DNA of 64,000 nucleotides from Dehalococcoidia bacterium (GTDB taxonomy: Bacteria > Chloroflexota > Dehalococcoidia > Lucifugimonadales > JAGWBF01): the NCBI GenBank assembly GCA_963663025.1, contig OY760073.1, positions 362,538 to 426,537 of the forward strand. The letters run 5' to 3'. This document shows positions 19,097-58,493 of this stretch, piece by piece. The notes below the pieces were generated by a model. It had not been told where the DNA came from. It saw only the letters and a program-made list of their open reading frames with translations, and ran no database searches. Every line of letters begins with the position of its first letter. Position 1 is the stretch's first letter. Made by a program: the position numbers and the translations under genes.

Positions 19097-21349
<2,253 letters not shown>

Positions 21350-21631
21350 TCACCTTGGCTCTACGGTCTCTCACCGGACATTTTCGTCTTGAGTGGGCCC
21401 AGGGGAGCCCGCGCTTATTGCTGCATTTTCAGCGACCGCTCGCTGCCAGCTTTCCATAATAACAAATTGGCTATCCCTTGGGCAATCCCAAGCTGACAGA
21501 CCCTTGAGACCTCACCGTTGTCCCGACGGAGAAGCCTGATGCCGCGGGCAACGTCGAGGGGGATTATGCCCTCCTGCACTGTCTTAAAGGCGTGATTTAC
21601 GGAGAGACCACATGCGACACCGGACCTCCGC

Positions 21632-22108
21632 TCACAGTCGGTCAAATCCCTTCCAGCCGGGTATGGAGGAAGCTTGCCGGACCCACTCCTCCATCTGCGC
21701 CTCGTCCAGTTCCCCTTCGTGGATATCGACCCAACGGGAGTCCGGATCCTTGCCTGATCCGGGAGGGGCGGGCTGCAGGTAAGCTCCGTTGAGAAAGGTT
21801 ATCTTCACGTAGCTGGTGAAGACATGGTAGCTCACGAACCACCCTTGGCCCTCGATGCCGTACCAGGGCGAGTTCCACCTCACAGCCTTGCGCACGTTTG
21901 GCACGGCGCGCGCGATGAGGTCGTCGAGGCGGCGACCAAGCTCCCGCTTCCAGCCGGGCATGGCCTCGATGTAAGCCTGCACGGGAGCGTCCCCGTCGCC
22001 CTTGGGAATCTGGGGGTTGCCTCCGGACAGGAGCACCGACTCGCTGGCGTTACTTGGCGCGGCGTGTGGCTCACCATTCTTCCCCTTCCGGGACTGCCGG
22101 CTCGGCAT
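21632..22108 (-). CDS. DUF1801 (YdhG-like) domain protein
   Basis: LLSGGNPQIPKGDGDAPVQAYIEAMPGWK, VRKAVRWNSPWYG. Confidence 0.85.
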   Translation of the reverse strand: MPSRQSRKGKNGEPHAAPSNASESVLLSGGNPQIPKGDGDAPVQAYIEAMPGWKRELGRRLDDLIARAVPNVRKAVRWNSPWYGIEGQGWFVSYHVFTSYVKITFLNGAYLQPAPPGSGKDPDSRWVDIHEGELDEAQMEEWVRQASSIPGWKGFDRL

Positions 22109-22316
22109 GGCGTTCACCCCACATCGTGTTCCGAAAAGCAGGTGTTGCAGCGTCCAGCACGAAAATGTCAAACCCTGATGCTCCGATCACCGGGCCGGCT
22201 TTTCGCCTGAAGCGCCGGGGTAAGTATAGCCGAAGCGGCAGGGCCTCCAGCTATGTGGCTGACCTGCCGCTTCTTATTGGCGCTCCCGTGCAACTAGTTC
22301 CATGGCCACTGTCCCA

Positions 22317-24053
22317 CTATTTATTTACGCGGCAACTGATGATGTCTACGCCGTAGTATTTCCGGTGGTGTACTGACGATGCGTAGTGGCTCAGGATTCG
22401 GAGGGATAGTTGTTCTTCATCTTCCAGAGCTTGGCCCTCGCCCAGATAGGCCATACGATTCTCGATATTCCCTTGGCTGGCGTCGTCCGAAGCGACCACG
22501 ATTTCTATCTCGGCCGATCCGCTGTCGGGACGAATAGTGGCGACCAACCTGCGCTTCTGCGCGCCCGACCCGTCGTCCTCTTCATTGAGCAAGCTCAACA
22601 TGACCTCTTCTCCTACCAGGCGCAGCCTGTTTTTCCCTTCCTCCGTCCAATTGTGTTCATCGGCGAACCGGCAGAGAAAATCGTCAACGGCAGGCAAGGA
22701 GGACTGGGATAAGTCAACCATCACCTTCCTGGCGCGAAAACTTGACAGTTCGGTGAATATGGTCATCATGATGGCCGCCATACCGCCGACGACAATAGTG
22801 TTGCCTACCAGATGGCCGATAGTCCCTCCGAACAAGTCTTTGAAGGCCACAGCGGACAAGCCCAAAACCATAGACACTCCAGTGATGGCGGCCTTCTTCT
22901 GGTCAATTTGTCCCGTGAAGACCGTCTTGGCGCCCTCGATAAAAAGCATGCCGAAAATGATCACGTACACCGCGCTGACCACCGGACCGGGGATGGCGAC
23001 CAGCACGGCAAGCAACTTGGAAAAGAAGGCAACCACTATGGTCAAGAGTCCCAGATATACACCGACACTCGTGACAGCTACCCCGGTAAAGCCAATGTAA
23101 ACCGCCGTGGCCGACCACGGCGCCGCGACAGGCAAGGTTCCCAGGAGGCCTGAAAGAAGGGTGCCCACCCCATACACATTCAAGCCCCCCTGCACCGAGC
23201 GGAAATCGATGGCAGAACGAACCCGATAGGAAGCGCGGTAAATCACCGACAGGTCGCCAACTACTTTCATAAAGGCGGTAAGATTCACCAATACGAAGGC
23301 TGGGAGCAGGGCCCAGAAATCGGGGCCAAAGTTGAGGTCCAGCCCCGGCCACGAGAAGTGGGGCAGGCTCACCCAGGAAGCGTTAATTACGATGCCGGCA
23401 TCGTAAAAACCCAGTGGCACGGCCACAATCAGACCGACGGCTACGGTGGCCGGCAATATCCACATCCGCCAGAACGCTGTGCCTTGCAGGGCTATCAGGG
23501 CCCCAACCGCCAGGGCAGCCAATCCCGGCGCCAGGAAAAGCACGGTAGATTCGTTATTCGGCGGAATAACCGTTCTGCTGATGATGAAGGGCATGGCGGA
23601 AACCGCCACCAGCATGATCACTACCCCGCTCACCGTTTGCGTGAATATCCGCCGGAGCGAGGCAAGGCGCAGGGTCAAAACAGACTGAACCAGGGTGGAA
23701 ACCACCACCAAGCTGGTCAGCAAACCAGGCCCGCCGACATGGAGCGCCAAGGCGCTAACTGCCAGGAACGGAACATTGAAGTTTGCCACAATGAGGCGGC
23801 CCGAACCCACATAACGCAGCCGGAGAGCCTGCAGTATCATGCTAGCTCCTGTGACTGCCAGCACGGTAAACGTCACCCACGACAGATAGGCTTCCGATTG
23901 CCCAGATGCCCGCACCACCAACGCTGCCAGCATGACGAGGCCGATGGTGTTGGGAATGAATATCTGTAAAGCCGAGGATATTGCCAGTAGCGGCGGACAC
24001 TTCTCATCCGGTTCGTACTGGAATTCGCGTCGTCCTTGGGACTTAGGAAACAT
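22317..24053 (-). CDS. NCS2/SLC23-fold permease fused to a C-terminal degenerate HATPase_c_2-like domain
   Basis: YEPDEKCPP...LQ N-terminus, LRRIFTQTVSGVVIMLV, AIPGPVVSAV, many TM segments; soluble tail resembles the RsbW at 4469-4885. Confidence 0.85.
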   Translation of the reverse strand: MFPKSQGRREFQYEPDEKCPPLLAISSALQIFIPNTIGLVMLAALVVRASGQSEAYLSWVTFTVLAVTGASMILQALRLRYVGSGRLIVANFNVPFLAVSALALHVGGPGLLTSLVVVSTLVQSVLTLRLASLRRIFTQTVSGVVIMLVAVSAMPFIISRTVIPPNNESTVLFLAPGLAALAVGALIALQGTAFWRMWILPATVAVGLIVAVPLGFYDAGIVINASWVSLPHFSWPGLDLNFGPDFWALLPAFVLVNLTAFMKVVGDLSVIYRASYRVRSAIDFRSVQGGLNVYGVGTLLSGLLGTLPVAAPWSATAVYIGFTGVAVTSVGVYLGLLTIVVAFFSKLLAVLVAIPGPVVSAVYVIIFGMLFIEGAKTVFTGQIDQKKAAITGVSMVLGLSAVAFKDLFGGTIGHLVGNTIVVGGMAAIMMTIFTELSSFRARKVMVDLSQSSLPAVDDFLCRFADEHNWTEEGKNRLRLVGEEVMLSLLNEEDDGSGAQKRRLVATIRPDSGSAEIEIVVASDDASQGNIENRMAYLGEGQALEDEEQLSLRILSHYASSVHHRKYYGVDIISCRVNK

Positions 24054-24163
24054 AAGATGATACCCAATCCTAATACTATCCGAGATATTGCTATATCGCC
24101 GCTACCCGACCGTCGGCAAATATGATGTAATATATCAGTACTATATTCTAGAGAGGGTCAATC

Positions 24164-27100
24164 TTGCGAAACTATCAAGAGAACAAGACTCAGGCGAATG
24201 GGACAGGATTAAAGCATCGGCGGTCGCCTGCCGGCGTGATCCTGCTGACATTGCTGCTTGCTTTGGCTTCTGTGGTGGTATTCAGCATGGCCTGTGGAGG
24301 TGATCCCACAGCAACGCCTACTGCAACCCTGGATCCCACGGCGACTCCTATGCCGACCGTCGCGCCCACGGCGACCTTGGAGCCTACTGCCGCGCCGACT
24401 CCAACCCCAGAACCGGAGCCCGTCGATGACGACGACGCCCTGACCCAAGCCTACGTGGAGAAGGCTGTCGCCTACTACGACGCTAACGGACGGGACGCGA
24501 CAGTCGAATACTACAAGAGCGAAGAGAGTATTGAGGGAGGCCGGTATCTGTACTTAATCAGCGATGATGGCGTCCTGCTGGCAATGCCGTTCTTTCATCA
24601 CTTCCTGGGAAGCAGGCACGAGTCCATCACGCCTTTCCTGGGAATCGCTGCGGAGGACGGCGCTTGGTATGATGGCCAGGGGCTCTATGTAGCGGAGACG
24701 GACACCGGCATTACAACCAGGCAGGGGCCAATGCGGCACTACCTTGCCCTGCGAGACGGCCTCATCTTCGTGTCAGGCCACTCCACCCTGCAGGAGAACC
24801 TGGCAGAAGCCGCGATGGATTACGTGAGCCGCGCTATAGCCCTCTACGAAAGTGAAGGGCTGGATGCGACGGTTGCCAACTACAACAGGCCCGACAGCCT
24901 GGAGGGGAACTTCTACCTGTTCCTGATAGGGGCTAACGACCTCTACCTGGCCCATCCCGTATTCCCGCACCTGATAGGGACCGACATCAAAGATGTGGTC
25001 GGATCAGACGGCCAGGAGTTGGGCAAAGAGATAGCCCAGGCAACCGAGGCCGGGATGTGGGTGGAGTACCTGTGGCCCAACCCGGTCACCCGGGTGGAGG
25101 AGCCCAAGACCACCTGGGTCATCCGCCACGACGGCCTGATCTTCGCCTCCGGTTACTACGCCGTGGGCGAAACGCAGGAGACGCCCGCCTGGCAGGGCGC
25201 GGACCCCCGCGAGTACACCGTGCAGTACGTGGAAAGGGCGATAGAGCGTTACGAGCGGGACGGCCTGGAACCCACCCTCAATTATTACAACAGCGTCGCC
25301 AGCTTTGAGGGCGAGTGGTATCTCTTTGCCACCGACGAGAACGACATCTATCATGTACACCCGCTGATTCCCCGCTTGCTAGGCACGGACATCAAGGATG
25401 TGGTGGGTTCCGACGGCTACGAGCTGGGCAATGAGCTGGCCAAGGCCGGAGAGGGAGAAGGCGTGTGGGTGGAGTACCTGTGGCCCCATCCGGTAACGCT
25501 TAAGGAAGTCCCCAAGGTCGGATACGCGGTGCGCCGGGACGGGATGATATTCGCATCCGGCTACTATCCGGGCGTCGCGGATCCGGCGACCTACACCCGG
25601 GCCTACGTCCAGAAGGCTATGGACTACTATGACAACCAGGGCCTGGAGGCCACGGTTACCCATTACAACAGCCCTGAGAGCATAGACGGCTCTTACTGGC
25701 TGATGATGGTCGATCCCCAGGGCGTCATAGCCGTGGCGGGTGGGGAGCCGGTCATGGTTGGCCTGAACGCCAGCCAGTTCCGGGGGATCGTGGCCGGAGA
25801 GCCAATTGGCGAATCGCTCCTAAGCGCCACCGAGGAAGGCCACTGGTTTAGGTACCTGTGGCCCAACCCCAGGACGGCGGGGCAGTTGACGGTGTACCTC
25901 TGGATAATACGCCACGACGGATACGTCTTCGCGTCCGCCTATTACGTTGAGGGCGACGTGGACGCGCCGCCGCCCGCCGATTCCGACGAGGCGCTGACCC
26001 GCGCTTACGTAGAGAAGGCTATCGAACGCTACCAGAGCGACGGGCGGGAGGCAGCGTTCGCCTACTACAACAGCCGAGAGAGCCACGAAGGAGAGCGGGC
26101 TCTGTTCGTCATCGACGAAGACTCCCTATTGAGCGTCGCTCCCTTCCCGGCGTTGGTAGGGTCTCCCCTGGGCCTCGGTACAGGGGCCTTTCCCGCCCGA
26201 GAGGAAATTACCGAAGAAGGGATCTGGGCCAACTTGGTTGGCTTGAATCCTGCCACCGGCGCTCAGTCGCCGATGCGAGCCATCTTTATCCTGCACGACG
26301 GCTTGGTATTCGCCTCAGGACACTTTCCCGTGCGGGAAAATGTCGAGGAGGCCACACAGGATTACGTCAACAGGGCGATTAAGCTTTACCAACGCGACGG
26401 CCTCGACGCCACCGTTGACTACTACAACAGTCAGGCCAGCCTGGAAGGACAGTTATACCTGTTCCTCATAGACGCCGACGACAAATACGTGGCCCATCCC
26501 ATATTCCCTCACCTCATCGGGACGGACATCAAGGACGTGATAGGCTCTGACGGCCAGGAGCTGGGCAAGGAGATAGCCCAGGCCACCCCGGAAGGAATCT
26601 GGGTGGAGTACCTCTGGCCCCATCCGGTCAGCCGCAAAGAAGGGGAGAAGGTCACTTGGGCCATTCGTCACGACGGGATGATATTCGCCTCCGGCTACTA
26701 CGCCGGACGAGACGTCGAAGGCGAAGCGGCGCCGTGGGAAGGGGTCGACCCGCGCGAGTACACAGAGGACTACGTGAATCGCGCCATTGAGCGTTACGAG
26801 CGCGACGGCCTGGAATCCATGCTCAACTACTACAACAGCGTTGCCAGCTTTGAGGGAGAATGGTACCTGTTCGCTACGGACGAAAACGACATCTACATCG
26901 TTCACGCGCTGTTCCCCCGTCTTAAAGGGACCGACATTAAGAATGCGGTGGGTTCCGATGGCTACGAGCTGGGCAAGGCGTTTGCCGCGGCCCGGGATGG
27001 CGGCGAAGGAGTCTGGGTGGAGTACCTGTGGCCCCATCCGGTAACGCTCAAGGAAGTTCGCAAGGTGGGCTACGCGGTGCGCCGTGATGGAATGATCTTC

Positions 27101-29077
27101 GCCTCGGGCTACTACCCCGAAATTGATGACCCCGCGGCCTACACGCAGGGATACGTCGCTGATGCCATTGACTACTATGAAGCCAACGGGTTGGACGGCA
27201 CCGTCGAGTATTACAACAGCCCGGAGAGTGTTGACAGCCAGTGGTGGCTGACCCTGATTGATGAGAACTACCTGTACATAGCGGATGCCTACTTCCCGCA
27301 TCTGATTGGCACTGACGGCAGGCACAGAGACTCGCCCATAGGTATTGACGACGGCGTTATGTTGACGACGGCCACGGAGAAAGGCGCCTGGCATGACACT
27401 CCCTGGTTCAACCCGAATACATCGGAGAAATTGCAGAGAAACTTGTGGGTGGTTCGCCACGAAGGACTGATCTTCATTTCCAGCTACTTCACCGCGGTGG
27501 GAGAACCCGGCCCTGGGGAGTCTGCGGACGACGCGCTGACCCGCGCCTATGTGGAGAAGGTCATCGCCTACTACGACACCAACGGTCGGGACGCGACGGT
27601 CGAATACTACAGGTCCGAAGCCGCCGTTGAAGACGGGAGGCCCCTGACCATCATAGACGCCGAGGAAAGCGTGCTGCTGGTCCACAGCGCGCTACGCGCC
27701 CTGGAGGGCCAGTACGTGGGACCCCAGTCAAGGTTCCCCGGTTTGCGGCAGTTGATAGACATAGCCACTGAAGAGGGCCGCTGGGATACCGCTCGCGGCA
27801 TCAACCCGGCCACCAAGCAGGAAGAGCCGCGGCGAATCCTCGCCGTCCTTCACGACGGCTTGGTGTTCGCCTCCAGCCATTCCGCTTTGACGGAGGATGT
27901 GGCGAATTCTACCCAGGAGTACGTGAACAAGGCCATTGCCAGGTACGAACAGGAGGGGCTGGACGCCACCATCGCCCACTACAATGGCCAAGACAGCCTG
28001 GACGGCCAGTTCTACCTATTCCTCATCGGCGCAGACGACCTCTACCTTGCCCATCCCATATTCCCGCACCTGATAGGGACCGACATCAAGGATGTGGTGG
28101 GGTCCGACGGGCAGGAATTGGGCAAAGAGATAGCCCAGGCTACCGAACAGGGCATCTGGGTGGATTACCTGTGGCCCCATCCCGTATCCAGGAAGGAACA
28201 GCATAAGGTCACCTGGGCCATCCGCCACGACGGGCTGATCTTCGCCTCAGGCTATTACGCCGGAGGGCCGGAGACGGGAACCCCCGCCTGGCAGGACGCC
28301 GACCCGAGGGAATACACTGTGGAGTACGTGGAGCGGGCTGTTGAGCGTTACCAGCGCGACGGCTTAGAGTCCCTGCTTAACTACTACAACAGCGTCGCCA
28401 GCTTCGAGGGCGAATGGTACCTGTTCGCTACTGATGAGAACGACATCTATCATGTGCATCCGTTGTTGCCGCGCTTGATAGGGACGGACATCAAGGATGT
28501 GGTGGGTTCCGACGACTACGAGCTGGGCGAGGAGCTTGCCAAGGCCCCGGATGGAGGGGAAGGCGTCTGGGTGGAGTACCTGTGGCCTCATCCGGTGACG
28601 CTGCAAGAAGTCTCCAAGGTGGGCTACGCTGTGCGTCGTGACGGAATGCTCTTCGCCTCGGGCTACTACCCGCAAGTTGAAGACCCGGCGGGCCAGACCA
28701 GGGACTATGTGCAGCAGGCTATCGATTATTACGAGGCCAACGGTTTGGACGCCACCATCGCCCACTACAACAGCCAGGAGAGTGTCGACGGTCAGTGGAG
28801 CTTAACCATGGCCGATGAGAACGACGTTGTGCGCGTCGCTGTCCTCTCTCCACACCTGATAGGCACTGACTTGAAAGACTTGGCCCGGGGCCGGGTTCGG
28901 CAGATTGGCGAAGAGTTGGCGGCAGCCACGGAGGAAGGCGTATGGGTCAGCCACCTCTTCCCCAACACCAGGTCGTCGGAGACGCTGTACGCGCATAACT
29001 GGGCCATCCGCTACGACGGGCTGCTCTTCACGTCGCGCTACTACGACGACCAGGCTGACGTTCAAGATATGCCTTAA
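24164..29077 (+). CDS. giant lipoprotein with 12 tandem single-Cache (sCache_2-like) domains
   Basis: Signal peptide with FSMAC lipobox, PTAT linker, 12 repeats of YV..AI..Y...G......YN...DG(L/M)IFASGYY; B and C repeats carry YLF...HP...GTDIKD...WVEYLWP.P...K. Confidence 0.88.
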   Translation: MRNYQENKTQANGTGLKHRRSPAGVILLTLLLALASVVVFSMACGGDPTATPTATLDPTATPMPTVAPTATLEPTAAPTPTPEPEPVDDDDALTQAYVEKAVAYYDANGRDATVEYYKSEESIEGGRYLYLISDDGVLLAMPFFHHFLGSRHESITPFLGIAAEDGAWYDGQGLYVAETDTGITTRQGPMRHYLALRDGLIFVSGHSTLQENLAEAAMDYVSRAIALYESEGLDATVANYNRPDSLEGNFYLFLIGANDLYLAHPVFPHLIGTDIKDVVGSDGQELGKEIAQATEAGMWVEYLWPNPVTRVEEPKTTWVIRHDGLIFASGYYAVGETQETPAWQGADPREYTVQYVERAIERYERDGLEPTLNYYNSVASFEGEWYLFATDENDIYHVHPLIPRLLGTDIKDVVGSDGYELGNELAKAGEGEGVWVEYLWPHPVTLKEVPKVGYAVRRDGMIFASGYYPGVADPATYTRAYVQKAMDYYDNQGLEATVTHYNSPESIDGSYWLMMVDPQGVIAVAGGEPVMVGLNASQFRGIVAGEPIGESLLSATEEGHWFRYLWPNPRTAGQLTVYLWIIRHDGYVFASAYYVEGDVDAPPPADSDEALTRAYVEKAIERYQSDGREAAFAYYNSRESHEGERALFVIDEDSLLSVAPFPALVGSPLGLGTGAFPAREEITEEGIWANLVGLNPATGAQSPMRAIFILHDGLVFASGHFPVRENVEEATQDYVNRAIKLYQRDGLDATVDYYNSQASLEGQLYLFLIDADDKYVAHPIFPHLIGTDIKDVIGSDGQELGKEIAQATPEGIWVEYLWPHPVSRKEGEKVTWAIRHDGMIFASGYYAGRDVEGEAAPWEGVDPREYTEDYVNRAIERYERDGLESMLNYYNSVASFEGEWYLFATDENDIYIVHALFPRLKGTDIKNAVGSDGYELGKAFAAARDGGEGVWVEYLWPHPVTLKEVRKVGYAVRRDGMIFASGYYPEIDDPAAYTQGYVADAIDYYEANGLDGTVEYYNSPESVDSQWWLTLIDENYLYIADAYFPHLIGTDGRHRDSPIGIDDGVMLTTATEKGAWHDTPWFNPNTSEKLQRNLWVVRHEGLIFISSYFTAVGEPGPGESADDALTRAYVEKVIAYYDTNGRDATVEYYRSEAAVEDGRPLTIIDAEESVLLVHSALRALEGQYVGPQSRFPGLRQLIDIATEEGRWDTARGINPATKQEEPRRILAVLHDGLVFASSHSALTEDVANSTQEYVNKAIARYEQEGLDATIAHYNGQDSLDGQFYLFLIGADDLYLAHPIFPHLIGTDIKDVVGSDGQELGKEIAQATEQGIWVDYLWPHPVSRKEQHKVTWAIRHDGLIFASGYYAGGPETGTPAWQDADPREYTVEYVERAVERYQRDGLESLLNYYNSVASFEGEWYLFATDENDIYHVHPLLPRLIGTDIKDVVGSDDYELGEELAKAPDGGEGVWVEYLWPHPVTLQEVSKVGYAVRRDGMLFASGYYPQVEDPAGQTRDYVQQAIDYYEANGLDATIAHYNSQESVDGQWSLTMADENDVVRVAVLSPHLIGTDLKDLARGRVRQIGEELAAATEEGVWVSHLFPNTRSSETLYAHNWAIRYDGLLFTSRYYDDQADVQDMP
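24428..29050 (+). repeat. three intragenic super-repeats of about 1.55 kb (starts near 24428, 25985, 27527)
   Basis: D(D/E)ALT(Q/R)AYVEK occurs three times; near-identical DNA blocks such as tacaacagcgtcgccagctttgagggcgagtggta recur three times. Confidence 0.92.
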
Positions 29078-29094
29078 CGAAAAGGGTTCTTGGC

Positions 29095-29493
29095 TTAGTC
29101 AATTGTAGCGGGCCAGTGGCCTGGCACGGGGAAGGCTTCGTCGTTGCCAGGCCACGGCGGCATGGTCACGATCAGGAACCGCAGTGAGCGGTCGCCCGTT
29201 GCCCTGAACTGGAAGTGGGCGCCAGCCGGAATGGACAGGCTCCCGCCCGGGGCAACGTCCACGACCCGCTCCTCTCCACCGTGCCTCCGCCAAACCTGGC
29301 CTGTGCCCTCCAGGAAGTACCAGACCTCCTCGACGGTCCTGTGCGCTACAGCGATCGACACCTCTCCTGGATTCAGGGTGCAGTGGACCATGCTTCCCCG
29401 GCTTGTCTCTGACAGCAGCCGGATCTCCGAACCGTCCGGGGCAACGATGTCCCGGTCCTTGGCAAGCTCCTTGTAGTCCAGTTCGTGTTTCAT
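29095..29493 (-). CDS. cupin domain protein (mannose-6-phosphate isomerase-like)
   Basis: APDGSEIRLL, HRTVEEVWYFLEG, HFQFR, TMPPWPG. Confidence 0.88.
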   Translation of the reverse strand: MKHELDYKELAKDRDIVAPDGSEIRLLSETSRGSMVHCTLNPGEVSIAVAHRTVEEVWYFLEGTGQVWRRHGGEERVVDVAPGGSLSIPAGAHFQFRATGDRSLRFLIVTMPPWPGNDEAFPVPGHWPATID

Positions 29494-29672
29494 GCTGGCT
29501 AACCTGCTGCTTTGGGCAATCATACCGCACCACAGGGGCCGCTGCCCTACTTCACGCCTGTCCTTGAATCAGCGCTGTTCTATACTGGCGCTTACAAGGC
29601 AGGGGCCCGGTAGACTTGACAGCGTCCTGCGACGATGCTGACATGGCCTGTAGTCCCGTAGAGGAGCCGACC

Positions 29673-30122
29673 ATGCCTACCTATAAGCGTCTCATCATCG
29701 CATGGCTCTTCGTTCCCATGCACCGGCTCCTGCTCCGCCTCTCCAGGGGCCGGCTACTCGGCAGTTTGGAAGGCCATGGAGTCCTGGTCCTTGTGACTAA
29801 GGGACGCAAGACCGGCAAGCCGCGGTCGTCGCCCCTGATGTACTTCCAGTTCGAAGAGTCAAGCGACCTCATTGTCGTTGCTTCCAACTACGGCCAGGAC
29901 CATCATCCGGCTTGGTACCTGAACATCGCGGCGGACCCAGCCGTTATCGTCGAAACCAAGGGGGAGCGGTTCCCCGCCCAGGCTCGCATCACCCGGGGTG
30001 AGGAACGGGCCTCGCTGTACGACAAAACTGCTGCGGCCAACCCGCGCTTTTCCCGCTATCGGGCTGCTACCCATCGCCAGATTCCGATAATCGCGCTTCG
30101 TCGGACCTCTCCGACAGCTTGA
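29673..30122 (+). CDS. deazaflavin (F420)-dependent nitroreductase family protein (Ddn-like)
   Basis: LVTKGRKTGKPR, VVASNYG..HHPAWYLNI, RQIPII. Confidence 0.92.
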   Translation: MPTYKRLIIAWLFVPMHRLLLRLSRGRLLGSLEGHGVLVLVTKGRKTGKPRSSPLMYFQFEESSDLIVVASNYGQDHHPAWYLNIAADPAVIVETKGERFPAQARITRGEERASLYDKTAAANPRFSRYRAATHRQIPIIALRRTSPTA

Positions 30123-30249
30123 GATGCGTTGAGGGTGAAGAGGCTCAGACATCTCATAACGGGTGTTGGTGCGTCCTTGACTAAGCCAACATACGGTGGC
30201 TTACTGAAGGCTGGCCTCGGTCAGCGCCGAAATCTCGTGGAGGAATGCG

Positions 30250-30891
30250 ATGGAGAACGGTCAGGCCAGTGCGTATCCGGTCCAGTACAGCGTGGACTAT
30301 CCCGAAGGCGCCAGGAACAGGCTGAGCGCCCTCCTCAGGATAATCCTTGTTATCCCGATACTCGTGGTTATCGCCCTTGTGAGCGGCTACACGTCCAGTG
30401 GCGATCTGGAAATCGATGAAGCCATCTCTCCCCTGTTTGCAGGTGGCATTGTGTGGACTGCCACGCTGCTGATGCTCCTGTTCAGGAAAAAGTACCCTCG
30501 CTGGTGGTTCGACTGGAACCTGGAGCTGCAGAGATTCAGCGCCCGGGTAGGTTCGTTCCTTTTCCTTCTGCGGGATGAGTACCCTTCCACCGACGAAGAG
30601 CAGGCCGTCCACCTCGACATCCCATACCCCAACGCCCAAGAGGAGTTGAACAGGTTCCTGCCCATCGTAAAGTGGCTGTTGGCCATCCCTCACTATGTGG
30701 CGCTAATTGTTCTAGGTGTGGTTGCATTGATAGTCACGGTCTTCGCTTGGCTGTCGATACTGGTAACCGGAAGCTATCCCAGGGGGATGTTTGACTTTGT
30801 GGTTGGAGTAGGCCGGTGGGGATTCAGGGTAACTGCCTATGCGGCCCTGCTGACCACGGACAGGTATCCCCCGTTCCGGCTCGGAAACTAA
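30250..30891 (+). CDS. DUF4389 membrane protein
   Basis: Duplicated KYPRWWFDW / SYPRGMFDF, DEYPS / TDRYPPF, KWLLAIPHY. Confidence 0.88.
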   Translation: MENGQASAYPVQYSVDYPEGARNRLSALLRIILVIPILVVIALVSGYTSSGDLEIDEAISPLFAGGIVWTATLLMLLFRKKYPRWWFDWNLELQRFSARVGSFLFLLRDEYPSTDEEQAVHLDIPYPNAQEELNRFLPIVKWLLAIPHYVALIVLGVVALIVTVFAWLSILVTGSYPRGMFDFVVGVGRWGFRVTAYAALLTTDRYPPFRLGN

Positions 30892-38816: not shown

Positions 38817-41800
38817 CTATTCGCTAGGGGCTTCCTCATTCTCGGATTGCGTCTCTGATTTGGCTTCATCTTCTTCGAGTTCAATTCCGAGAATGGTTCC
38901 GATTCTCCTCAGAGGCGGCAGCATAGAGTCATCGTCTGAGACTTCTCTGAGGCGTTGTCGAACCCGATCTCTGAAATCGTTGGCTGCACCCTGTTCTTTG
39001 CTCGCGGTTAGCAGTGTAGGGTTGCATTCAACGGTGTCCGCGACCCATTCCAGTCCCCTTTCGTTATCTGCATCCAAGACAGGCCTACATACGCGTTCAA
39101 TAAATCCACGCTCGTTGACCAGCAGGTCGCCATTCGATAACAAGCTGCCAAAGAGATCAAAGAACTTTGCGCTTGCCTCGCCCTCAGACTGTTGAAGAAC
39201 GTCGAATATACGACCGAGGAATAGTCCCCGTTGCTCAGTGTCTAGCAAGGCAATAAGAGCATCCCAGGATGCGCTCGGAAGAATCCCCTTAGAATCTGAG
39301 GCGACACTTTCGGAGTACTTTACGAGCCCATCAAGGTAGGCGGAGCCGAGGGTCATGCTAGCCCCTCTGTTCTTCAGTTCTACCACAAGTTCCACTAGGT
39401 CTCCCCGAGGCCTGATCTCTTTCGTCCAATTGTCCCGATTGATATCAGCGAGACCCCTTTCGCACCACGTTACAAAACTGCCGTCTGTGCCTCCTCTCAA
39501 CAGAGCTAGGTAGAGGCCGCTCTCATTCACTCTAAAGGCCCCGTCGATTACTCCAGCAATCAAATCCTCAAGCCCAGGCAATTCTCTCAGGAATACTTCG
39601 AAACTCTGCGAATCCTCCTTCCTCCTTTGCAAGATACTCCGTATAAGAGACCACTTTGCCCTAACTAATCCAGTCGGCTTCGAAACGTCTTCGGAAGTGA
39701 GGAGTGCTCCAAGGACTTCCACCAGAAATGGAGGAACAGGCCGTCTCCCAGTCGCCATCTGAAGAACTACTGGAAGTTGCTTGGTCTCCTTTGCTCGCGC
39801 GATGAAGTGTGCCGCGGCTTGGGGGACGGTGTTCGGGTCTTGAAGAAGTTCGGTGAGGTTCTCATATCCAGCGACAGAATTGCCGAATTCTTCAGGCTCA
39901 CTTGCATCAGGAACGGCTTCCAAATAACCGAATGCGCACTCACCTACCGCTTCCGGATGGCTATCCGAAAATGCCTGATGTAAGTGATGGAGGTAATAGC
40001 CACCTGATGCGAATGCCGCATACTCATCTTCCGAAATGAGGCCAACTGCTACTGAGTAGCGGAGTACCCCCAACATAAAGGCAAGCTCTTCACTGTCAAT
40101 CGCTTGTCTTGACTGAAGGTGCGAGAACACCTCCCTTGCTACTTTGCTCATGGTATTTCCGGATCTGGTCGCCATCGCCGATTGCAAAGCGTCATATGTG
40201 TTTTCCTCGATTTCACCGGGACTCACTTGCTGAGCCAGCAGCTCATCAATCTCAACGACAGCTTGGAGGCTGAAGTACTTCAATAGCTGGCCATATGGGT
40301 CCTTGTCAGCCACCTCATGGGATACATCAAGCCATTGGTGGGCATCCAATGGAACCCTAATTCCTTGTGTCATCTGATTGCTGAAGCCAAGGTCAACCAA
40401 GCCTTCAATTAGAGCGAACGCGGAAGACATCCATACGCTCGGAGGTACTCGCTGTCTTTTGGTCCTTGAGTCATCCTCTCGTTGCTCTTCATCTGAGGCT
40501 TCGACTGGTGCTTTAGAGGCTCCCGCAAGTAGAATTGGGACTATTTCCTCTGAGTTGCCTGCCAATTGTCCCAAGTCGACCATCCCCCTTGCCATCGACG
40601 CATCGAACGGAGTCCAAGCTTGTAGCGCTGACGCCGCTGTCTGAATGGTTGACCTGAGGGCCTTTGCTTCTGGACGAGTGTTGGCATTTTCAAAGACTTC
40701 GCTACTGACAAGAGCAGAGGCCGCCTTCGCTAGGTCCGAAGGTGGGAGACTAGCCCAATCTTGAGCTCCCGCCGGTACGGCGTCTTCAAGAACGGCCCAG
40801 AACCCATCGGGGTGAGCCGATGCGAGACTTGATAGGGTGGCCCCGTCTCCGTCGCCAAGAGCAACCTGGATCGGCCCTCTGAGGAGGAGTTGCTGCGCCT
40901 CCTGGGTGGAGACTCCATAGTGAAGAGCTGCAATCGTCTCTCTCCACTGGTTTCCAATGATCCGTTTTGGAAAATCCAAATCGTCGCTCGAAAGGAGGCA
41001 TTCGCGCACGTTTGTGCCGTCTCTCTGCAAGAGAACATGGCACGCAAGATGAGAAAGCGGAAATTCATCATGCCGCTCCCTGTGAAGGGAACCTATTTGG
41101 TTTATGAATATCTTGAGATCCCGGGGAGTTGGCGCCGATGTTTCAAGCCCACCCTTAATTGCAAAAGCTCGGTATACGCCATGGAAATCTGATTCTTGGT
41201 GGCCAGGAAGGGCTTGTTGGAGAGCCCCCTGGAGGAATCCTCGCCAGTCCGTCAACAAAAGCGGTGGTACCCTAAATCTAATTTGAAAAGTCTTGTCAAG
41301 AAACGATACTGCCATTGCTGAATCAGCGTCTTCGGTTTCCTCATCGGATTGTTCCCAAAGGCGAACTATGGCCGTGCCGTCGTATGGGATTAGAACCCAT
41401 AGCAGGTCGATCCATCCAGGACGCCGGTAGTCACTATATGCGAGGAACGTCTGTAGTGTTGACCAAATTGAGAGGGCATCGGACGCCTGGACACGATCCA
41501 GGTTGTCTATGACAAGGAGCAACTTTCGAGTGTCTTTCTCTAAGGCTTCACCTAGAAGATCACGGAATACAGACTCGAACTCAACCGATGTAGGATCTGG
41601 CGCCTGGGTTACTATGGTGCGAGACTCGGTCGAGGCTTGCCCTGTTATTAGAGCTGGGAGGGCGTCTAAACCGCCATCTTCTTCTCTATCGCTGCCTCCA
41701 CGCTTTCTCCTCCAGTGTCGGATACCTCCCACGAAGCTATACAGAATAGCTGGCGAGAGCACGCCGCCCGCGCCGATGCCAATAAGAAGAGCAACCAGGA

Positions 41801-42308
41801 TTACGGAAGCTTCTGCGGATGCCAAAAGCCGAGCACCAGCGGCGATTAGCGCTGAGCCCATGGGAACAGCCAGTAAACTGAAAGCGAAGGCGATGCCCAA
41901 GCCTGTCAATTTGGGTGCGACTCTGGTCGTTTCCTCACGGCGGCGCCTAGCAAGCTCGTCAATGCGCTGGTCCCATTTCTCCGTGTCGACCCAGCCAAAT
42001 CCCTGAACTTGGGTGATGAGATTCTCTAGGAAGGTGCGCCGCAGCGGGTCGCCCTGATGGGACCACATATCGAAGACAGCAACCCTGTAATCGCGCTCCT
42101 TGGTTTCTGGGAGTTCCTTAGAAATAAGCTTGACGATAGTGGATTTGCCGGCACCCCATCCACCTTCGAGGCCTATGGCCTTCCCACCGCATTCGGTCAT
42201 AACTACTTCCGCGATCGATCGGGCGACCTTGGCATGACCCCCGAATGCATCTATTTCGGAGGGAGTGTCCGCGAGAAGTTTGGTAGTACAAGGATTATTC
42301 ATAGCCAC
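38817..42308 (-). CDS. KAP-family P-loop NTPase with two TM helices and a long C-terminal extension
   Basis: GLEGGWGAGKST Walker A, FDMWSHQGDPLRRTFL, TM insert, LLLVIDNLDRV Walker B, FLDKTF, TPRDLK. Confidence 0.9.
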   Translation of the reverse strand: MAMNNPCTTKLLADTPSEIDAFGGHAKVARSIAEVVMTECGGKAIGLEGGWGAGKSTIVKLISKELPETKERDYRVAVFDMWSHQGDPLRRTFLENLITQVQGFGWVDTEKWDQRIDELARRRREETTRVAPKLTGLGIAFAFSLLAVPMGSALIAAGARLLASAEASVILVALLIGIGAGGVLSPAILYSFVGGIRHWRRKRGGSDREEDGGLDALPALITGQASTESRTIVTQAPDPTSVEFESVFRDLLGEALEKDTRKLLLVIDNLDRVQASDALSIWSTLQTFLAYSDYRRPGWIDLLWVLIPYDGTAIVRLWEQSDEETEDADSAMAVSFLDKTFQIRFRVPPLLLTDWRGFLQGALQQALPGHQESDFHGVYRAFAIKGGLETSAPTPRDLKIFINQIGSLHRERHDEFPLSHLACHVLLQRDGTNVRECLLSSDDLDFPKRIIGNQWRETIAALHYGVSTQEAQQLLLRGPIQVALGDGDGATLSSLASAHPDGFWAVLEDAVPAGAQDWASLPPSDLAKAASALVSSEVFENANTRPEAKALRSTIQTAASALQAWTPFDASMARGMVDLGQLAGNSEEIVPILLAGASKAPVEASDEEQREDDSRTKRQRVPPSVWMSSAFALIEGLVDLGFSNQMTQGIRVPLDAHQWLDVSHEVADKDPYGQLLKYFSLQAVVEIDELLAQQVSPGEIEENTYDALQSAMATRSGNTMSKVAREVFSHLQSRQAIDSEELAFMLGVLRYSVAVGLISEDEYAAFASGGYYLHHLHQAFSDSHPEAVGECAFGYLEAVPDASEPEEFGNSVAGYENLTELLQDPNTVPQAAAHFIARAKETKQLPVVLQMATGRRPVPPFLVEVLGALLTSEDVSKPTGLVRAKWSLIRSILQRRKEDSQSFEVFLRELPGLEDLIAGVIDGAFRVNESGLYLALLRGGTDGSFVTWCERGLADINRDNWTKEIRPRGDLVELVVELKNRGASMTLGSAYLDGLVKYSESVASDSKGILPSASWDALIALLDTEQRGLFLGRIFDVLQQSEGEASAKFFDLFGSLLSNGDLLVNERGFIERVCRPVLDADNERGLEWVADTVECNPTLLTASKEQGAANDFRDRVRQRLREVSDDDSMLPPLRRIGTILGIELEEDEAKSETQSENEEAPSE

Positions 42309-42505
42309 ATCAATGTCCCTAAGGGACGATTGTTCCAGGAAGATATTCTACAACGTCCGGGACAACAAGGGTTCTGAGGTCAAGAGATCATAGGGGTTGA
42401 CCAGGTCTGGCAGGCTTAGAGTTTGGTGATGTTGGTTCTAATCTCTGAGGGTATTTGATTCGTAGTTGGCAAGGGGGTGCCGACCTAGGTGAGCCGTGTG
42501 GTAAG

Positions 42506-42577
42506 TGGGCCCGCCAGGAATCGAACCTGGGACCCGCCGGTTATGAGCCGGCTGCTCTGCCGCTGAGCTACGGGCCC
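42506..42577 (-). tRNA. tRNA with CAT anticodon, most likely tRNA-Ile2; CCA not encoded
   Basis: GGGCCCGTAGCTCAGCGGCAGAGCAGCCGGCTCATAACCGGCGGGTCCCAGGTTCGATTCCTGGCGGGCCCA cloverleaf; paired G1-C72 excludes the initiator. Confidence 0.92.
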
Positions 42578-55343: not shown

Positions 55344-55418
55344 GCCCCCGTAGCTCAGAGGATAGAGCGCTGGCCTCCGGAGCCAGGTGCGGGAGTTCGA
55401 GTCTCCCCGGGGGTACCA
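55344..55418 (+). tRNA. tRNA-Arg(CCG)
   Basis: GCCCCCGTAGCTCAG...TGGC-CTCCGGA-GCCA...GTTCGAGTCTCCC-CGGGGGT-A-CCA. Confidence 0.95.
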
Positions 55419-55929: not shown

Positions 55930-56011
55930 CCGGAAGATGTCCTTACCGCGACAAACTTGAGGTAGGCATATGGATGGGCGCTGGCGCGCTAGATTTCGCA
56001 ATATCTCGAAA

Positions 56012-56075
56012 CTCAGAGGATAGGGCGCTGGCCCCCGGAGCCAGGGGCGGGAGTTTGAGGTTCCCCTGGGTACCA
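56012..56075 (+). pseudogene. degenerate copy of tRNA-Arg(CCG) (att-like scar)
   Basis: ctcagaggatagggcgctggcccccggagccaggggcgggagtttgaggttcccctgggtacca aligns to 55354-55418 with substitutions. Confidence 0.88.
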
Positions 56076-56233
56076 TGCCACGCCCTAAGTCCCGGGTATT
56101 CTAGATGCATGGACGATCACTACCTGTGAGCAGTTGTGACCCCTCTCCTTTGTGCGCTACAGCGGGTGCTGTCCTGTAGAATGTTTGTGGTCAATAGTCT
56201 CCGGTCGAACTTGTAAGGAATGGAGCACCGCAA

Positions 56234-58090
56234 ATGAAATTGAAACAGCTAAAGTTACAGAACTTCCGGTGTTACAAGGACGAAGTGGACATCGATCTTG
56301 ATGACCTAGTGGTACTAGTTGGTAAAAACGATTCGGGAAAGTCGTCTTTGTTTGACGCACTTGAAATATTCTTCGACGAAAGAGCTGCGCCAGATAGAGA
56401 GGATCGCTGCGTTCATTCTGGTGACACATCGATAATGATTGCTTGTGTTTTCTCGGATCTTCCTCCTCAGATCGTGATTGATGCGCAACATACGACCGAC
56501 CTTGCTTCTGAATTCTTGCTTAATGGTGAAGGATGCCTGGAAATAGCAAAGACCTACGATTGCAAACTGGCCAAACCTAAGTTGTCCACCATACACGCTA
56601 GGGCTTTGCATCCAACTGCGGAGCATTATAGTGACTTGTTGACACTTACCAATGCACAATTGAAGCAGCGAGCAAACTTTCTTGGGGTTGACTTGGGCAG
56701 CGTTAATCAGGCAGTCAACACCGACATCCGCCGAGCGATTTGGTCCCACTCAAACGAACTAAAGGAGCTAGAGGTTGACATAGAGATAAAGGGAGAGGTC
56801 GACAAGATATGGACACAACTCAAGAGATTCTTGCCGGTTTATGCGTTGTTCAAGGCTGATCGACCCAGCACTGACCAAGACGCAGAAGCGCAAGACCCTA
56901 TGAAAGCTGCCGTCAAGGAGGCGATCCAAGCTCAACAAGAGACTCTGAACGCAATAGGCGAAAAGGTGAAGGCCGAAGTTCAGGAGATTGCCAACAAGAC
57001 CGTCGAAAAAATCAAAGAGATGAGCCCGGAATTGGCTAGCCAACTAACCCCCCGAGTTTCAAACAAGAATTGGGATTCCTTGTTTTCGGTTTCCCTATCA
57101 GGGGATGAAGACATCCCAATCAATAAACGTGGGAGCGGTACGCGAAGGCTCGTCTTGTTAAATTTCTTCCGAGCTAAAGCTGAAAGGGACGCGCTGGGAA
57201 GCGATACGGGTGTTGTTTACGCCATAGAAGAACCCGAAACAAGCCAGCACCCTCTCAACCAGATCATGCTCGTTAAGGCTCTAGAAGAATTGGTGGAATC
57301 GTCTGAATGCCAAGTTTTTGTCTCGACCCACACCCCAGTTTTGGCCCGCCGGTTTAATCAGCTGGATCTCCGCCTCATTTCGAGGAACGGGACACAGCCT
57401 ACGATCAGGCATGGAAGAGATGAAGAGACGATCAAAGATATTGTTGAATCGTTAGGAGTCTTGCCAGACCACAACGTCAAAGTGTTCTTTGGTGTCGAAG
57501 GAAGAAACGATATCAATTTCCTGCGCATAATTTCAAAGATTTTGCATGATGCGAAAGGAGATATTCCAGACCTAGGTCTCGAGGAAGACGCAGGGAGAAT
57601 AGTTTTCATTCCACTTGGCGGTAGCAGTATGGATTTGTGGACATCCAAGTTGCAGGGGTTCAATCGTCCCGAATTCTACCTGATGGATCGAGATAACCCT
57701 CCCCCGCAAAAGCCAAAGCATCATGAGTTCGCTGAGAGCATAGAAGCACGTTCAGACTGCACGGCATGGATCACCGAGCGAAAAGAACTGGAAAACTACA
57801 TCCATCCGGACGTTATCAAAAGCTCCTACTCTAATTATTCTGGGACGGGGTCTGGCTTCGAGGATGTCCCCGAATTGTTCGCACAGGTAGTCCACGAATC
57901 CAGTGAAAGTGATGAATCCTGGGACGACATAAAAGGTAACCCGGACAAGTTACGCAAGAGAATTTCGGGCGCAAAGCGAAGATTGAATAGTGAATTTGCC
58001 TCGAAGATGACAGCCGACCTTCTTTCAAAGGTTGACACCAAAGGAGAGGTGGTTACTTGGTTGAAGGACATATATGCCGCGCTAAATTGA
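56234..58090 (+). CDS. OLD-family ATP-dependent nuclease (ABC-ATPase + TOPRIM)
   Basis: LQNFRCY, GKNDSGKS, RGSGTRR signature, AIEEPETSQHP, STH; TOPRIM VEGRND and DRD; KELENY. Confidence 0.9.
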   Translation: MKLKQLKLQNFRCYKDEVDIDLDDLVVLVGKNDSGKSSLFDALEIFFDERAAPDREDRCVHSGDTSIMIACVFSDLPPQIVIDAQHTTDLASEFLLNGEGCLEIAKTYDCKLAKPKLSTIHARALHPTAEHYSDLLTLTNAQLKQRANFLGVDLGSVNQAVNTDIRRAIWSHSNELKELEVDIEIKGEVDKIWTQLKRFLPVYALFKADRPSTDQDAEAQDPMKAAVKEAIQAQQETLNAIGEKVKAEVQEIANKTVEKIKEMSPELASQLTPRVSNKNWDSLFSVSLSGDEDIPINKRGSGTRRLVLLNFFRAKAERDALGSDTGVVYAIEEPETSQHPLNQIMLVKALEELVESSECQVFVSTHTPVLARRFNQLDLRLISRNGTQPTIRHGRDEETIKDIVESLGVLPDHNVKVFFGVEGRNDINFLRIISKILHDAKGDIPDLGLEEDAGRIVFIPLGGSSMDLWTSKLQGFNRPEFYLMDRDNPPPQKPKHHEFAESIEARSDCTAWITERKELENYIHPDVIKSSYSNYSGTGSGFEDVPELFAQVVHESSESDESWDDIKGNPDKLRKRISGAKRRLNSEFASKMTADLLSKVDTKGEVVTWLKDIYAALN

Positions 58091-58262
58091 CGGTCGAGAC
58101 TTTCCTTCAGGAGTGATTGAATCGAAGGGACAGCCGTAAGAACCCGTCGTCTCCAAGCTCCCCCAATAACTGGGACTGCCACAACCCACTTCAGACAACG
58201 TCTATTCGCCGTTAACTGTTGGTACGTAAGATTGGGGCGGGACTGGAGTTCCCCATGCTCTC

Positions 58263-58493
58263 CTACGGCTTCCGCGGGGTTGGGCGGGGCGGGTTGCACC
58301 AGGAGCAGTAGCGAATCTCCAGGTTGGTGCTTTGGGCCTTGCTGGCTGCGCCCGATACCGTTGGTATGTACTCGTAGTACTCACACGAGGGTGGGTCGGT
58401 CCGGCTGACCCCTCCGTGCACTTTCAGGCGAACGCAAGTTGAGCGGTGCACCGCCGCATACCTGCTCCGGTGATTGACAAAGATCGTAAACAT
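58263..58493 (-). CDS. small HxxxC...CxxC putative Zn-binding protein, copy 1
   Basis: VHRSTC...YCSWCNP; GGGGAG RBS; paralog at 62290-62538. Confidence 0.8.
   Translation of the reverse strand: MFTIFVNHRSRYAAVHRSTCVRLKVHGGVSRTDPPSCEYYEYIPTVSGAASKAQSTNLEIRYCSWCNPPRPTPRKP

Follow-up and report, generated by a model that had tools for sequence, protein, structure and literature searches.

Cache domains are the commonest extracellular sensor domains of prokaryotes and are known almost entirely as the input side of signalling proteins. In the GlnPQ-type ATP-binding cassette (ABC) importers of Gram-positive bacteria, several tethered or fused substrate-binding domains raise the local capture of substrate. 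In the sCache_2 family a detailed pocket is described for PscD, where propionate is hydrogen bonded by Tyr90, His103, Tyr143 and Lys156, is sandwiched between Trp92 and Trp145 with Met129 near, and abuts a back wall formed by Phe126 that restricts ligands to C2 and C3 acids (PMC5062169). The binding proteins of TRAP secondary transporters recognise a carboxylate (PMC4646407). Here we describe a gene that encodes twelve tandem Cache-like units, and the divergent permease gene beside it, in a 64,000-nucleotide stretch of DNA from a Dehalococcoidia bacterium (contig OY760073.1 of assembly GCA_963663025.1, positions 362,538 to 426,537; the whole stretch is called the window). Taken together the features of this locus suggest that the array protein could be an output-less, lipid-tethered ligand-capture partner of an NCS2-family permease, a proposal for which we see the chances as evenly balanced.

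The features of the locus are the following, in window coordinates and with the basis of each assignment.

22317 to 24053, reverse strand: NCS2-family (Xan_ur_permease) permease of 578 residues, divergent from the array gene (Pfam PF00860)
24054 to 24163, no strand: AT-rich divergent intergenic region of 110 nt (sequence read)
24164 to 29077, forward strand: array gene, a single open reading frame (ORF) of 1637 residues with a TTG start (reading frame, translation)
24164 to 24295, forward strand: signal peptide, a basic n-region with RR and a hydrophobic run leading to ..FSMAC (translation, DNA)
24296 to 24424, forward strand: low-complexity linker rich in P, T, A and E, residues 45-87 (43 residues; translation)
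24425 to 24787, forward strand: unit A1, residues 88-208, Cache-like without the canonical pocket (no Pfam match alone; pocket read from the alignment)
24788 to 25162, forward strand: unit B1, residues 209-333, sCache_2 with a Tyr/His/Tyr/Lys tetrad (Pfam, 34.6 bits; aligned to 4k08)
25163 to 25570, forward strand: unit C1, residues 334-469, sCache_2 with a Tyr/His/Tyr/Lys tetrad (Pfam, 36.7 bits; aligned to 5g4y)
25571 to 25948, forward strand: unit D1, residues 470-595, Cache-like with an incomplete tetrad (Pfam sCache_2, 20 bits, below the cut-off)
25949 to 26329, forward strand: unit A2, residues 596-722 (unit alignment; orthologues 76-96% identical in 10 other loci)
26330 to 26704, forward strand: unit B2, residues 723-847, sCache_2 with the tetrad (Pfam, pocket alignment)
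26705 to 27118, forward strand: unit C2, residues 848-985, sCache_2 with the tetrad (Pfam, pocket alignment)
27119 to 27493, forward strand: unit D2, residues 986-1110 (unit alignment; no Pfam match alone)
27494 to 27886, forward strand: unit A3, residues 1111-1241, Cache fold in the predicted model (AlphaFold2 model residues 1-124; VIA-align Z 10-11)
27887 to 28261, forward strand: unit B3, residues 1242-1366, sCache_2 with the tetrad (Pfam; VIA-align Z 17.2 to 4k08 and 16.6 to 5g4y)
28262 to 28672, forward strand: unit C3, residues 1367-1503, sCache_2 with the tetrad (Pfam, pocket alignment)
28673 to 29047, forward strand: unit D3, residues 1504-1628, Cache fold in the predicted model (VIA-align Z 12.2, root-mean-square deviation (rmsd) 2.5, 105 residues, Mlp24)
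29048 to 29077, forward strand: nine-residue tail and stop codon (translation)

The frame of the array gene is uninterrupted over 4914 nt (24164-29077, forward strand), and a Shine-Dalgarno-like AGAGAGGG at 24150-24157 has the TTG start 6 nt downstream; an Rfam search of 21000-30500 at E <= 1 returned no riboswitch or other family, only one chance-level snoRNA match. Cutting the protein after each DGxxFxS motif yields 12 units of 121-138 residues. In the DNA a block of ~50 nt around this motif occurs in 12 copies at a spacing of 375-414 nt, and a repeat search finds three direct super-repeats spaced 1542-1557 nt apart; Tandem Repeats Finder reported nothing, since the period exceeds 500 nt. 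The matrix of identities between units resolves four classes that follow one another in the order A-B-C-D three times, and both this matrix and the repeat spacing bear out the (ABCD)x3 layout with super-repeats of about 1.55 kb that an initial annotation of this DNA had put forward. Its description of the B and C copies as nearly identical was overstated: among the window units protein identity is 72-76% for B-B pairs and 77-85% for C-C pairs (72-85% overall), and the copies are 75-80% identical in DNA. Identities are 50-61% for B-C, 44-48% for A-A, 38-46% for D-D and 26-47% for all other pairs.

Judged by its signal peptide, the array protein is extracytoplasmic. Cys44 (codon TGT, 24293-24295; context ..VVFSMAC44GG) is a putative lipid-attachment site, as its lipobox-like setting suggests, and the P/T-rich linker that follows would form a flexible stalk. 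The translation contains no second membrane helix and Pfam and NCBIfam scans detect no output domain; NCBIfam matches to MctS and CtpM cover the Cache part only and lie far below their cut-offs. Missing, then, are the second of the two membrane helices that flank the Cache part of a signal transducer and the cytoplasmic output module that follows it, and because it has no transmembrane or cytoplasmic output the array is not a conventional sensor. As a separate observation, many orthologues carry a twin-arginine-like RR (.. K/R-R-R-x-P-x-G-V ..) right before the hydrophobic core of the signal peptide (window 24164-24230).

On the whole protein the Pfam family sCache_2 (PF17200) scores E = 3e-57 and 193 bits, against a cut-off of 25, in 7 stretches. 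When units are scored singly, B1-3 and C1-3 all pass (6/6, 29.4-36.7 bits, same cut-off), D1 reaches 20 bits, and A1-3, D2 and D3 give no match at E <= 0.01, so that by sequence score membership of sCache_2 is confined to B and C. Whole-protein Pfam matches to HTH_29, HTH_23, HTH_28 and I-TevI_DNA-bd, for which no stretch passes alone, were set aside as noise because they are sums of weak matches to the repeated N-terminal helix. An AlphaFold2 model of cassette 3 was built from an alignment of 107 cassettes (window and related loci). With a mean predicted local distance difference test score (pLDDT) of 83.6 and a predicted TM-score (pTM) of 0.51, it presents each of the four units as two helices followed by a five-stranded sheet; at this pTM the packing of A-B-C-D as one unit is left open. 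Foldseek matches the model to the sCache_2 structures 4K08, 5G4Y, 4EXO and 2QHK (TM 0.64-0.73 on the target), and VIA-align places 2qhk, 4k08 and 5g4y on unit B with Z of 17.3, 17.2 and 16.6 (B3 against 4k08: rmsd 2.8 A, 126 residues). Unit A (model residues 1-127) aligns at Z 10-11 with Cache/PAS modules of other receptors, unit D (387-511) at Z 12.2 with the ligand-binding domain of Mlp24 (rmsd 2.5, 105 residues), and A3 alone, by its language-model features, falls closest to sCache_2 clusters (0.93, 174 shared features). The predicted structure assigns all four unit classes to the Cache fold, with only B and C recognisable as sCache_2 by sequence. The earlier identification of the units as Cache domains is upheld for B and C by Pfam, and for A and D by the predicted model and its structural matches.

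The pocket of the B and C units was compared with that of PscD by HMMER alignment of C1 to the PscD sensor domain (PscD-SD) and of B1 to Adeh_3718, and eight positions were transferred to the 107-cassette alignment. All six B and C units of the window possess the Tyr/His/Tyr/Lys tetrad. The B pocket reads Y, F, H, G, I, Y, W, K and is invariant in 107/107 cassettes save for a lone exception at the K231 position (K in 106/107); the C pocket reads Y, F, H, G, L, Y, W, K and is equally invariant except at L341 (95 L, 7 I, 5 F). That B and C resemble carboxylate-binding sCache_2 pockets, as first suggested from the sequence, is thus matched residue by residue in an alignment that is frozen across the family. 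The seven PscD contacts are not all identical in B and C: in the B and C units of all 107 cassettes, Phe takes the place of Trp92 and Gly that of Phe126. The ligand range of B and C is not to be equated with that of PscD. Substitution of Gly for the back-wall Phe should enlarge the cavity, and the ligand is probably a small organic acid that exceeds acetate and propionate in size. In the A units of the 107 cassettes the tetrad positions hold S/T/A/P/Y (Tyr90), mostly Y (His103), T/A/G/L (Tyr143) and R (77) or M (18) (Lys156); in the D units they hold N/S/W/G, mostly A, F/Y/H/T and mostly A, respectively. Window examples are P/H/A/R in A3 and S/A/H/A in D3. By this alignment A and D lack the canonical carboxylate tetrad.

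The strongest functional clue, overlooked in the initial annotation, is the pairing of the array gene with the permease. The permease matches Pfam PF00860 with E = 4e-26 (92 bits, cut-off 27), and its score for the NCBIfam family ncs2, 96 bits, falls below the cut-off of 291.8 and those for xanthine and uracil permeases fall far below theirs; its membrane core spans approximately residues 25-447. We surveyed 73 loci in species-representative genomes. In 67 of them a permease homologue (54-91% identity) is encoded no more than 6 kb from the Cache gene, and in 57 it is the immediate upstream neighbour on the opposite strand. Four of the six loci in which no permease was seen within 6 kb are contigs cut at the gene. 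For nine other neighbours in the window the corresponding count is 0-4 of 73 loci. In a set of 40 related genomes, matches to the permease at >= 79% identity are confined to G002, G005, G009, G021 and G035, precisely the five whose ABCD orthologue has a complete N-terminus; the orthologue in G016 starts at a contig end, and the remaining permease matches in the 40 genomes are <= 44%. In dozens of uncultured Dehalococcoidia the array is in this way linked genetically to a single secondary transporter.

Because its gene is tied across species to a divergent NCS2-family permease, we propose that the array works together with that permease. The protein would be anchored by lipid at the cell surface and held off the membrane by its flexible P/T-rich stalk, where it would capture and concentrate the permease substrate. 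B and C would be the ligand-binding modules, which gives the window protein six such pockets, and A and D may serve as scaffold, contact or alternative-specificity modules. In effect the array would serve a secondary transporter as its tethered binding protein, and extra cassettes would raise the capture capacity. This proposal builds on the architecture, fold, pocket conservation, evolutionary rates, copy-number variation and synteny reported here, and adds to them three elements that we infer: lipidation, the class of ligand, and a physical or functional coupling to the permease. If the coupling is true, Cache domains have a role in nutrient capture instead of signalling, NCS2-type transporters use an accessory binding protein, and the pocket offers a handle on an organic acid taken up by uncultured bacteria.

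The same permease synteny would accompany a regulatory or auxiliary subunit that responds to a ligand outside the cell by modulating the permease, or a transceptor that signals via the cytoplasmic C-terminal domain of the permease, alternatives that we regard as unlikely. The C-terminal domain in question (~130 residues, 445-578; window 22320-22721, reverse strand) is non-hydrophobic and has many invariant positions across 65 aligned orthologues, which would suit such a function, but it has no Pfam match. Language-model features place it close to clusters (0.93) that include one where 15% of the members carry HATPase_c_2, a weak lead, and no partner-switching or two-component gene is present among the neighbours scanned. 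The animal calcium-channel subunits alpha2delta and Cachd1 are among the Foldseek and VIA-align matches to the multi-domain model; however, the alpha2delta matches have an rmsd of 14-21 A, which speaks for shared domains and not a shared assembly. Expansion to 8 or 12 units is also easier to account for as added capture capacity than as a regulatory feature. Alignments with paralogous permeases (31-42% identity) of this genome and of related ones cover the full length, C-terminal domain included. A complex prediction for permease residues 1-450 with cassette 3, given both alignments, returned a score of 0.00, which is no answer and counts neither for nor against binding.

One of the paralogues was seen elsewhere in the genome of the window (G000:C1:1834448-1839630, locus L100). 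This NCS2-type permease, 31% identical to that of the window, has a divergent P/T-linker lipoprotein upstream, of 473 residues with two internal repeats and a C-terminal HExxHxxxxxH, in which no Cache unit and no Pfam family were found; a second P/T-linker lipoprotein of 357 residues in the same neighbourhood matched no family. This paralogue rules out a Cache partner for every permease of this type.

Several considerations weigh against the array as a capture partner of the permease. Contact between the two proteins and transport that needs the Cache protein are conjectural, and the pairing itself is incomplete: the permease is near but not divergent-adjacent in 10/73 loci, the complete loci L028 and L034 have no permease within 6 kb, and the association does not generalise to the paralogous permease beside the HExxH lipoprotein. 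No NCS2 transporter is known to use a binding protein, and our literature search returned no such paper either. Known NCS2 substrates are nucleobases and ascorbate, not simple carboxylates, so that the NCS2 family is not an obvious fit for a carboxylate-type pocket. The capture model leaves A and D, half of the protein, without an assigned function. Finally, the lipobox of the window protein, S-M-A-C, is less canonical than that of its relatives, typically AVAC/GDD.

As regards the family to which the array belongs, the 73 loci are all from metagenome-assembled genomes titled Dehalococcoidia, Chloroflexota or Tepidiformaceae. Named relatives in the databases are few and are listed as 'hypothetical' or 'cache domain-containing protein' of Chloroflexi, and a profile-free exhaustive search recovered 1619 cluster representatives at E <= 1e-3 and 169 at E <= 1e-30. 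The comparison of repeat number that the initial annotation had proposed was made over the 73 loci, and gives 4, 8 or 12 units with cassettes in varied combinations. Of the 68 genes that are not truncated at the edge of a contig, 42 have 4 units, 16 have 8, 7 have 12, 2 have 9 (with an extra A) and 1 has 7. The building block is a four-domain cassette A-B-C-D, of which most relatives hold one and the window protein three. In the family grammar two frozen pockets lie between two Cache modules that evolve fast, in 4-, 8- and 12-domain versions and with no output. Complete N-termini of relatives have a hydrophobic run ending in Cys in 63/70 cases, and the stalks of these 70 are P/T/A/E-rich in 58, collagen-like in 3, composed of VxE repeats in 2 and of other types in 7.

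Long stalks and repeat expansion resemble surface adhesins, and precomputed Pfam lists show relatives in which cassettes are fused to collagen-like repeats, fibronectin-III, leucine-rich repeat (LRR) and immunoglobulin (Ig)-type domains. A surface adhesin or matrix-interaction protein, with the Cache repeats as a rigid scaffold on a stalk and the permease as a case of coincidental co-regulation, would account for these features. We nonetheless consider it very unlikely: a scaffold is not expected to keep eight invariant pocket residues in B and C over 107 cassettes, nor an adhesin to keep the permease beside it in 67/73 loci.

Further relatives were noted in passing. A scan of the window genome with sCache_2 finds two genes only, the array gene and that of a three-Cache lipoprotein of 449 residues, and no Cache-bearing signal transducer was seen there with this family model. 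The 449-residue lipoprotein (G000:C1:1852417-1853766; L101:1918-3267, reverse strand) has a lipobox-like Cys, a collagen-like GPPGEQGPPGPQGPQG stalk and no permease adjacent; its three Cache units are 38-39% identical to window units, and 3- and 6-unit versions of it occur in G006, G018, G024 and G036. The distant relatives P0022, P0048, P0064 and P0081-P0087 join Cache units to LRR, fibronectin-III, Ig-like, SIMPL or peptidase domains, and P0071 (2099 residues) consists of 16 consecutive B-like units. In G002, a genome of the same genus, the orthologue is in two pieces on two contigs (L013 on G002:C2 and L024 on G002:C1), one of 690 residues that ends inside the A unit of the second cassette and one of 450 residues that starts inside an A unit. 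The latter directly follows an ORF that resembles a serine recombinase (by eye only), and the split may reflect a rearrangement, the insertion of a mobile element or a break in the assembly.

The history of the cassettes bears on how the similarity of B and C should be understood. Between window cassettes the synonymous divergence (dS) is 0.79-1.30 in all four unit classes, and the nonsynonymous divergence (dN) is 0.50-0.53 for A, 0.16-0.18 for B, 0.10-0.14 for C and 0.40-0.66 for D. Because dS is equal across the classes and only dN differs, the similarity of the B and C copies reflects purifying selection and not recent gene conversion; neither dS nor the repeat comparison gives any sign of recent gene conversion or ongoing hypermutation among the window cassettes. 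In a maximum-likelihood tree of 60 units from seven genomes, units group by position and not by genome. Window units 1-4 group with units 1-4 of 8-unit orthologues, units 9-12 group with units 5-8 of 8-unit orthologues and with the four units of a single-cassette protein, and units 5-8 (cassette 2) are on separate branches; a database search finds orthologues of cassette 2 at 84-94% identity in other proteins. By these comparisons the three window cassettes are ancient, each with positional orthologues in other species or genera.

Unit typing of 85 homologues and the 73 genomic loci against the window's 12 units identified the cassette combinations 3, 1-3, 2-3, 3-3, 1-2-3, 2-3-3, 3-2-3, 1-3-3 and 3-3-3, always with A-B-C-D order. 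Locus L028, from the genome of another species, has the same 1-2-3 order as the window at 81-96% identity per unit. Recent whole-cassette duplicates are found in L027, where cassettes 2-3 have 93-95% DNA identity, and likewise in L042 and L045, with A already the most diverged unit in all three. The idea of reshuffling by recombination thus holds insofar as whole cassettes are gained, lost and duplicated across species, but it does not extend to recent gene conversion in the window. Between unlike cassettes of L028 and L043, dS is 0.32-0.55 for B/C (0.34-0.42 in L028, 0.32-0.55 in L043) versus 0.83-1.29 for A/D, which hints at occasional conversion in those two loci and none in the window. Along cassette-2 orthologues dS ranges over 0.16-0.87, and in L030 and L031 the C unit is near-equally close to C1 and C2, a pattern that is no more than suggestive of C-unit mosaicism. 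The DNA starts of A1 and A3, first described as almost identical, are 85% identical over 94 nt; that description was overstated too, since the likeness does not go beyond the conserved-helix pattern of every unit. Considered as a recombination footprint (81-83% of nucleotides over ~25 codons, the same codon at 15/18 and 16/20 sites), this likeness was not taken as conversion because it is not clearly above that of the B/C blocks.

Repeats are a classic source of mis-assembly, and contigs from public reads are short, with none bridging a cassette junction, so an array of 12 units might be suspected to come from mis-joined repeats. The cassettes differ by 20-45% in DNA, however, which is too much to collapse or expand, and 12 units are found in 7/68 complete loci. 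Given this divergence, the intact 4914-nt frame, a source genome that is a single 2.35-Mb contig and the identical cassette order in L028, an artefact is extremely improbable and is excluded for practical purposes, a concern that the initial annotation had itself raised. In public sequencing runs the highest share of sampled words was 0.21. Contigs from four runs are short, some of them identical to the window (e.g., 24000-24520 and 29023-29200), and the joints within them have short sides at 88% likeness that probably come from relatives or repeats; the public reads neither confirm nor question the array.

The A and D units depart from B and C in where their variation falls. Between window cassettes a sliding-window comparison of A and D gives up to 80% identity in the N-terminal helix, ~40-56% in the C-terminal strands and 14-48% in the cores, in agreement with the first description of a kept helical N-terminus and C-terminal end around differing cores; the cores of B and C, 84-100% identical, are their best conserved part. 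The variable stretch of A and D, from strand 1 to strand 3, corresponds to the pocket-forming part of PscD. Mean column entropy of the cores over the 107 cassettes is 1.67 bits for A, 0.37 for B, 0.48 for C and 1.53 for D. Pocket-equivalent positions have 2.06 versus 1.47 bits for the rest of the unit in A, and 1.45 versus 1.20 in D; within the commonest cassette type, type 3 (76 rows), the values are 1.33 versus 1.13 for A and 0.68 versus 0.70 for D. Within one cassette type the excess at pocket positions is therefore small for A and absent for D, and the claim that divergence is concentrated on pocket positions is retained slightly for A and lost for D.

Among orthologues of cassette types 3, 1 and 2, in that order, dN/dS is 0.37, 0.33 and 0.27 for the A core, 0.30, 0.27 and 0.53 for the D core, 0.07, 0.09 and 0.08 for the B core, and 0.12, 0.13 and 0.10 for the C core, where the type-3 values come from 300 non-independent pairs of 73 rows (three rows were dropped for start-codon mismatch). 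The cores of A and D evolve approximately 3-5 times faster than those of B and C, and in none of these region-level estimates for types 1-3 does dN/dS exceed 1. A and D are fast-evolving under weaker purifying selection, and diversifying selection is not supported at the region level. Their description as hypervariable in the pocket is accurate in that divergence is greatest in the pocket-forming stretch; active diversification, at dN/dS of 0.27-0.53, is not supported. Conservation specific to cassette type (76-96% identity among orthologues for A2, 81-88% for D1) argues that A and D are functional, perhaps by providing scaffold or contacts, or else pockets with a different specificity.

These data also bear on the view, taken in the initial annotation, that the array is a multi-ligand receptor diversified through hypervariable A and D pockets, with recombination between B/C blocks keeping up the diversity. 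The concentration of A and D differences in the pocket-forming core, the greater variability of A pocket positions both overall and within type 3, a type-specific conservation that indicates function and not decay, the shuffling of cassettes between species and the hint of conversion in L028 and L043 would all be in keeping with it. Yet dN/dS stays below 0.55 in all A and D regions, the window cassettes diverged long ago and to an equal extent at synonymous sites in every class, units cluster by position across species, and D pocket positions of type 3 are no more variable than the rest of D. Nor do A and D have the ligand-binding Tyr/His/Tyr/Lys tetrad; ligand pockets in them are conjectural, and with them a multi-ligand receptor. 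No reverse transcriptase family was detected among 17 neighbouring ORFs of at least 142 residues scanned in 10026-42308, and no near-identical template repeat in 23900-29300, where no repeat copy exceeds 86% identity; the hallmarks of a diversity-generating retroelement or of programmed hypervariation are absent. In sum, we judge a diversified multi-ligand receptor to be decidedly improbable.

Two other regions of the window were noted apart from the array. The first, at 56000-62300, has a guanine-plus-cytosine (GC) fraction of 0.49-0.53 versus ~0.60 and lies just after a tRNA-Arg gene (55344-55418); it encodes an AAA_15/AAA_21 ATPase (56234-58090), a 544-residue trypsin-like peptidase (58750-60384) and a DUF4062 protein (61268-62263), and it resembles an integrated island, possibly for defence. 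The second, at 38817-42308 on the reverse strand, encodes a 1163-residue KAP-family P-loop NTPase beside tRNA-Met (42505-42577) and has a GC fraction of 0.53-0.56.

In a literature search whose coverage left subscription journals outside, nothing was found on output-less multi-Cache lipoproteins, on Cache domains with NCS2 transporters, or on Cache domains in Dehalococcoidia. Of the described systems, PscD-SD (5G4Y/5G4Z), Adeh_3718 (4K08), the Vibrio parahaemolyticus methyl-accepting chemotaxis protein (MCP; 4EXO/2QHK) and McpP share with B and C the family, the fold (Z 16.6-17.3) and the pocket, with the tetrad of Tyr90/His103/Tyr143/Lys156 and the aromatic pair at 92 and 145. PscD-type domains occur singly, with a membrane helix on either side, and act on a cytoplasmic MCP or kinase module, whereas the window protein has 12 tandem domains, a putative lipid anchor and no output, and its A and D half is without the pocket; with Gly in all 107 cassettes at the position of the back-wall Phe126, its ligand is probably different too. 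Because output and a second membrane helix are absent, no described receptor class fits the array protein as a whole. Likeness to alpha2delta and Cachd1 extends to a membrane-tethered, extracellular, multi-Cache protein with no enzymatic output and, as proposed here, a membrane transport partner, but a Pfam scan at E <= 1 finds no VWA family in the window protein, whole-model rmsd is 14-21 A, and taxa and partners are unrelated, so that the likeness is best taken as analogy and not membership. GlnPQ-type importers differ in the fold of the binding domains, in transporter class, and in covalent fusion where the array would be a separate lipoprotein.

In principle the proposed pair would work like TRAP (DctP-QM) and TTT (TctC-AB), where an extracytoplasmic binding protein beside a secondary transporter catches an organic acid. 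As in those systems the gene of the candidate binding protein adjoins that of a membrane component, here a permease within 6 kb in 67/73 loci. The window partner has a Cache fold in place of the Venus-flytrap fold of substrate-binding proteins, and the membrane protein is of the NCS2 family and not DctQM or TctAB, so the array-permease pair cannot be filed as TRAP or TTT although it may work like them. A bolder form of the proposal, which we put forward as a doubtful possibility, is that the ABCD lipoprotein and its NCS2-family partner represent a third class of secondary transporter that depends on a binding protein, besides TRAP and TTT, where a Cache-fold protein would deliver the substrate and capacity would be tuned by cassette duplication to 2, 4 or 6 pockets per molecule. 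Set beside these systems, the sCache_2 family itself is known, and what is new for Cache domains is the architecture of the array and its genomic partnership.

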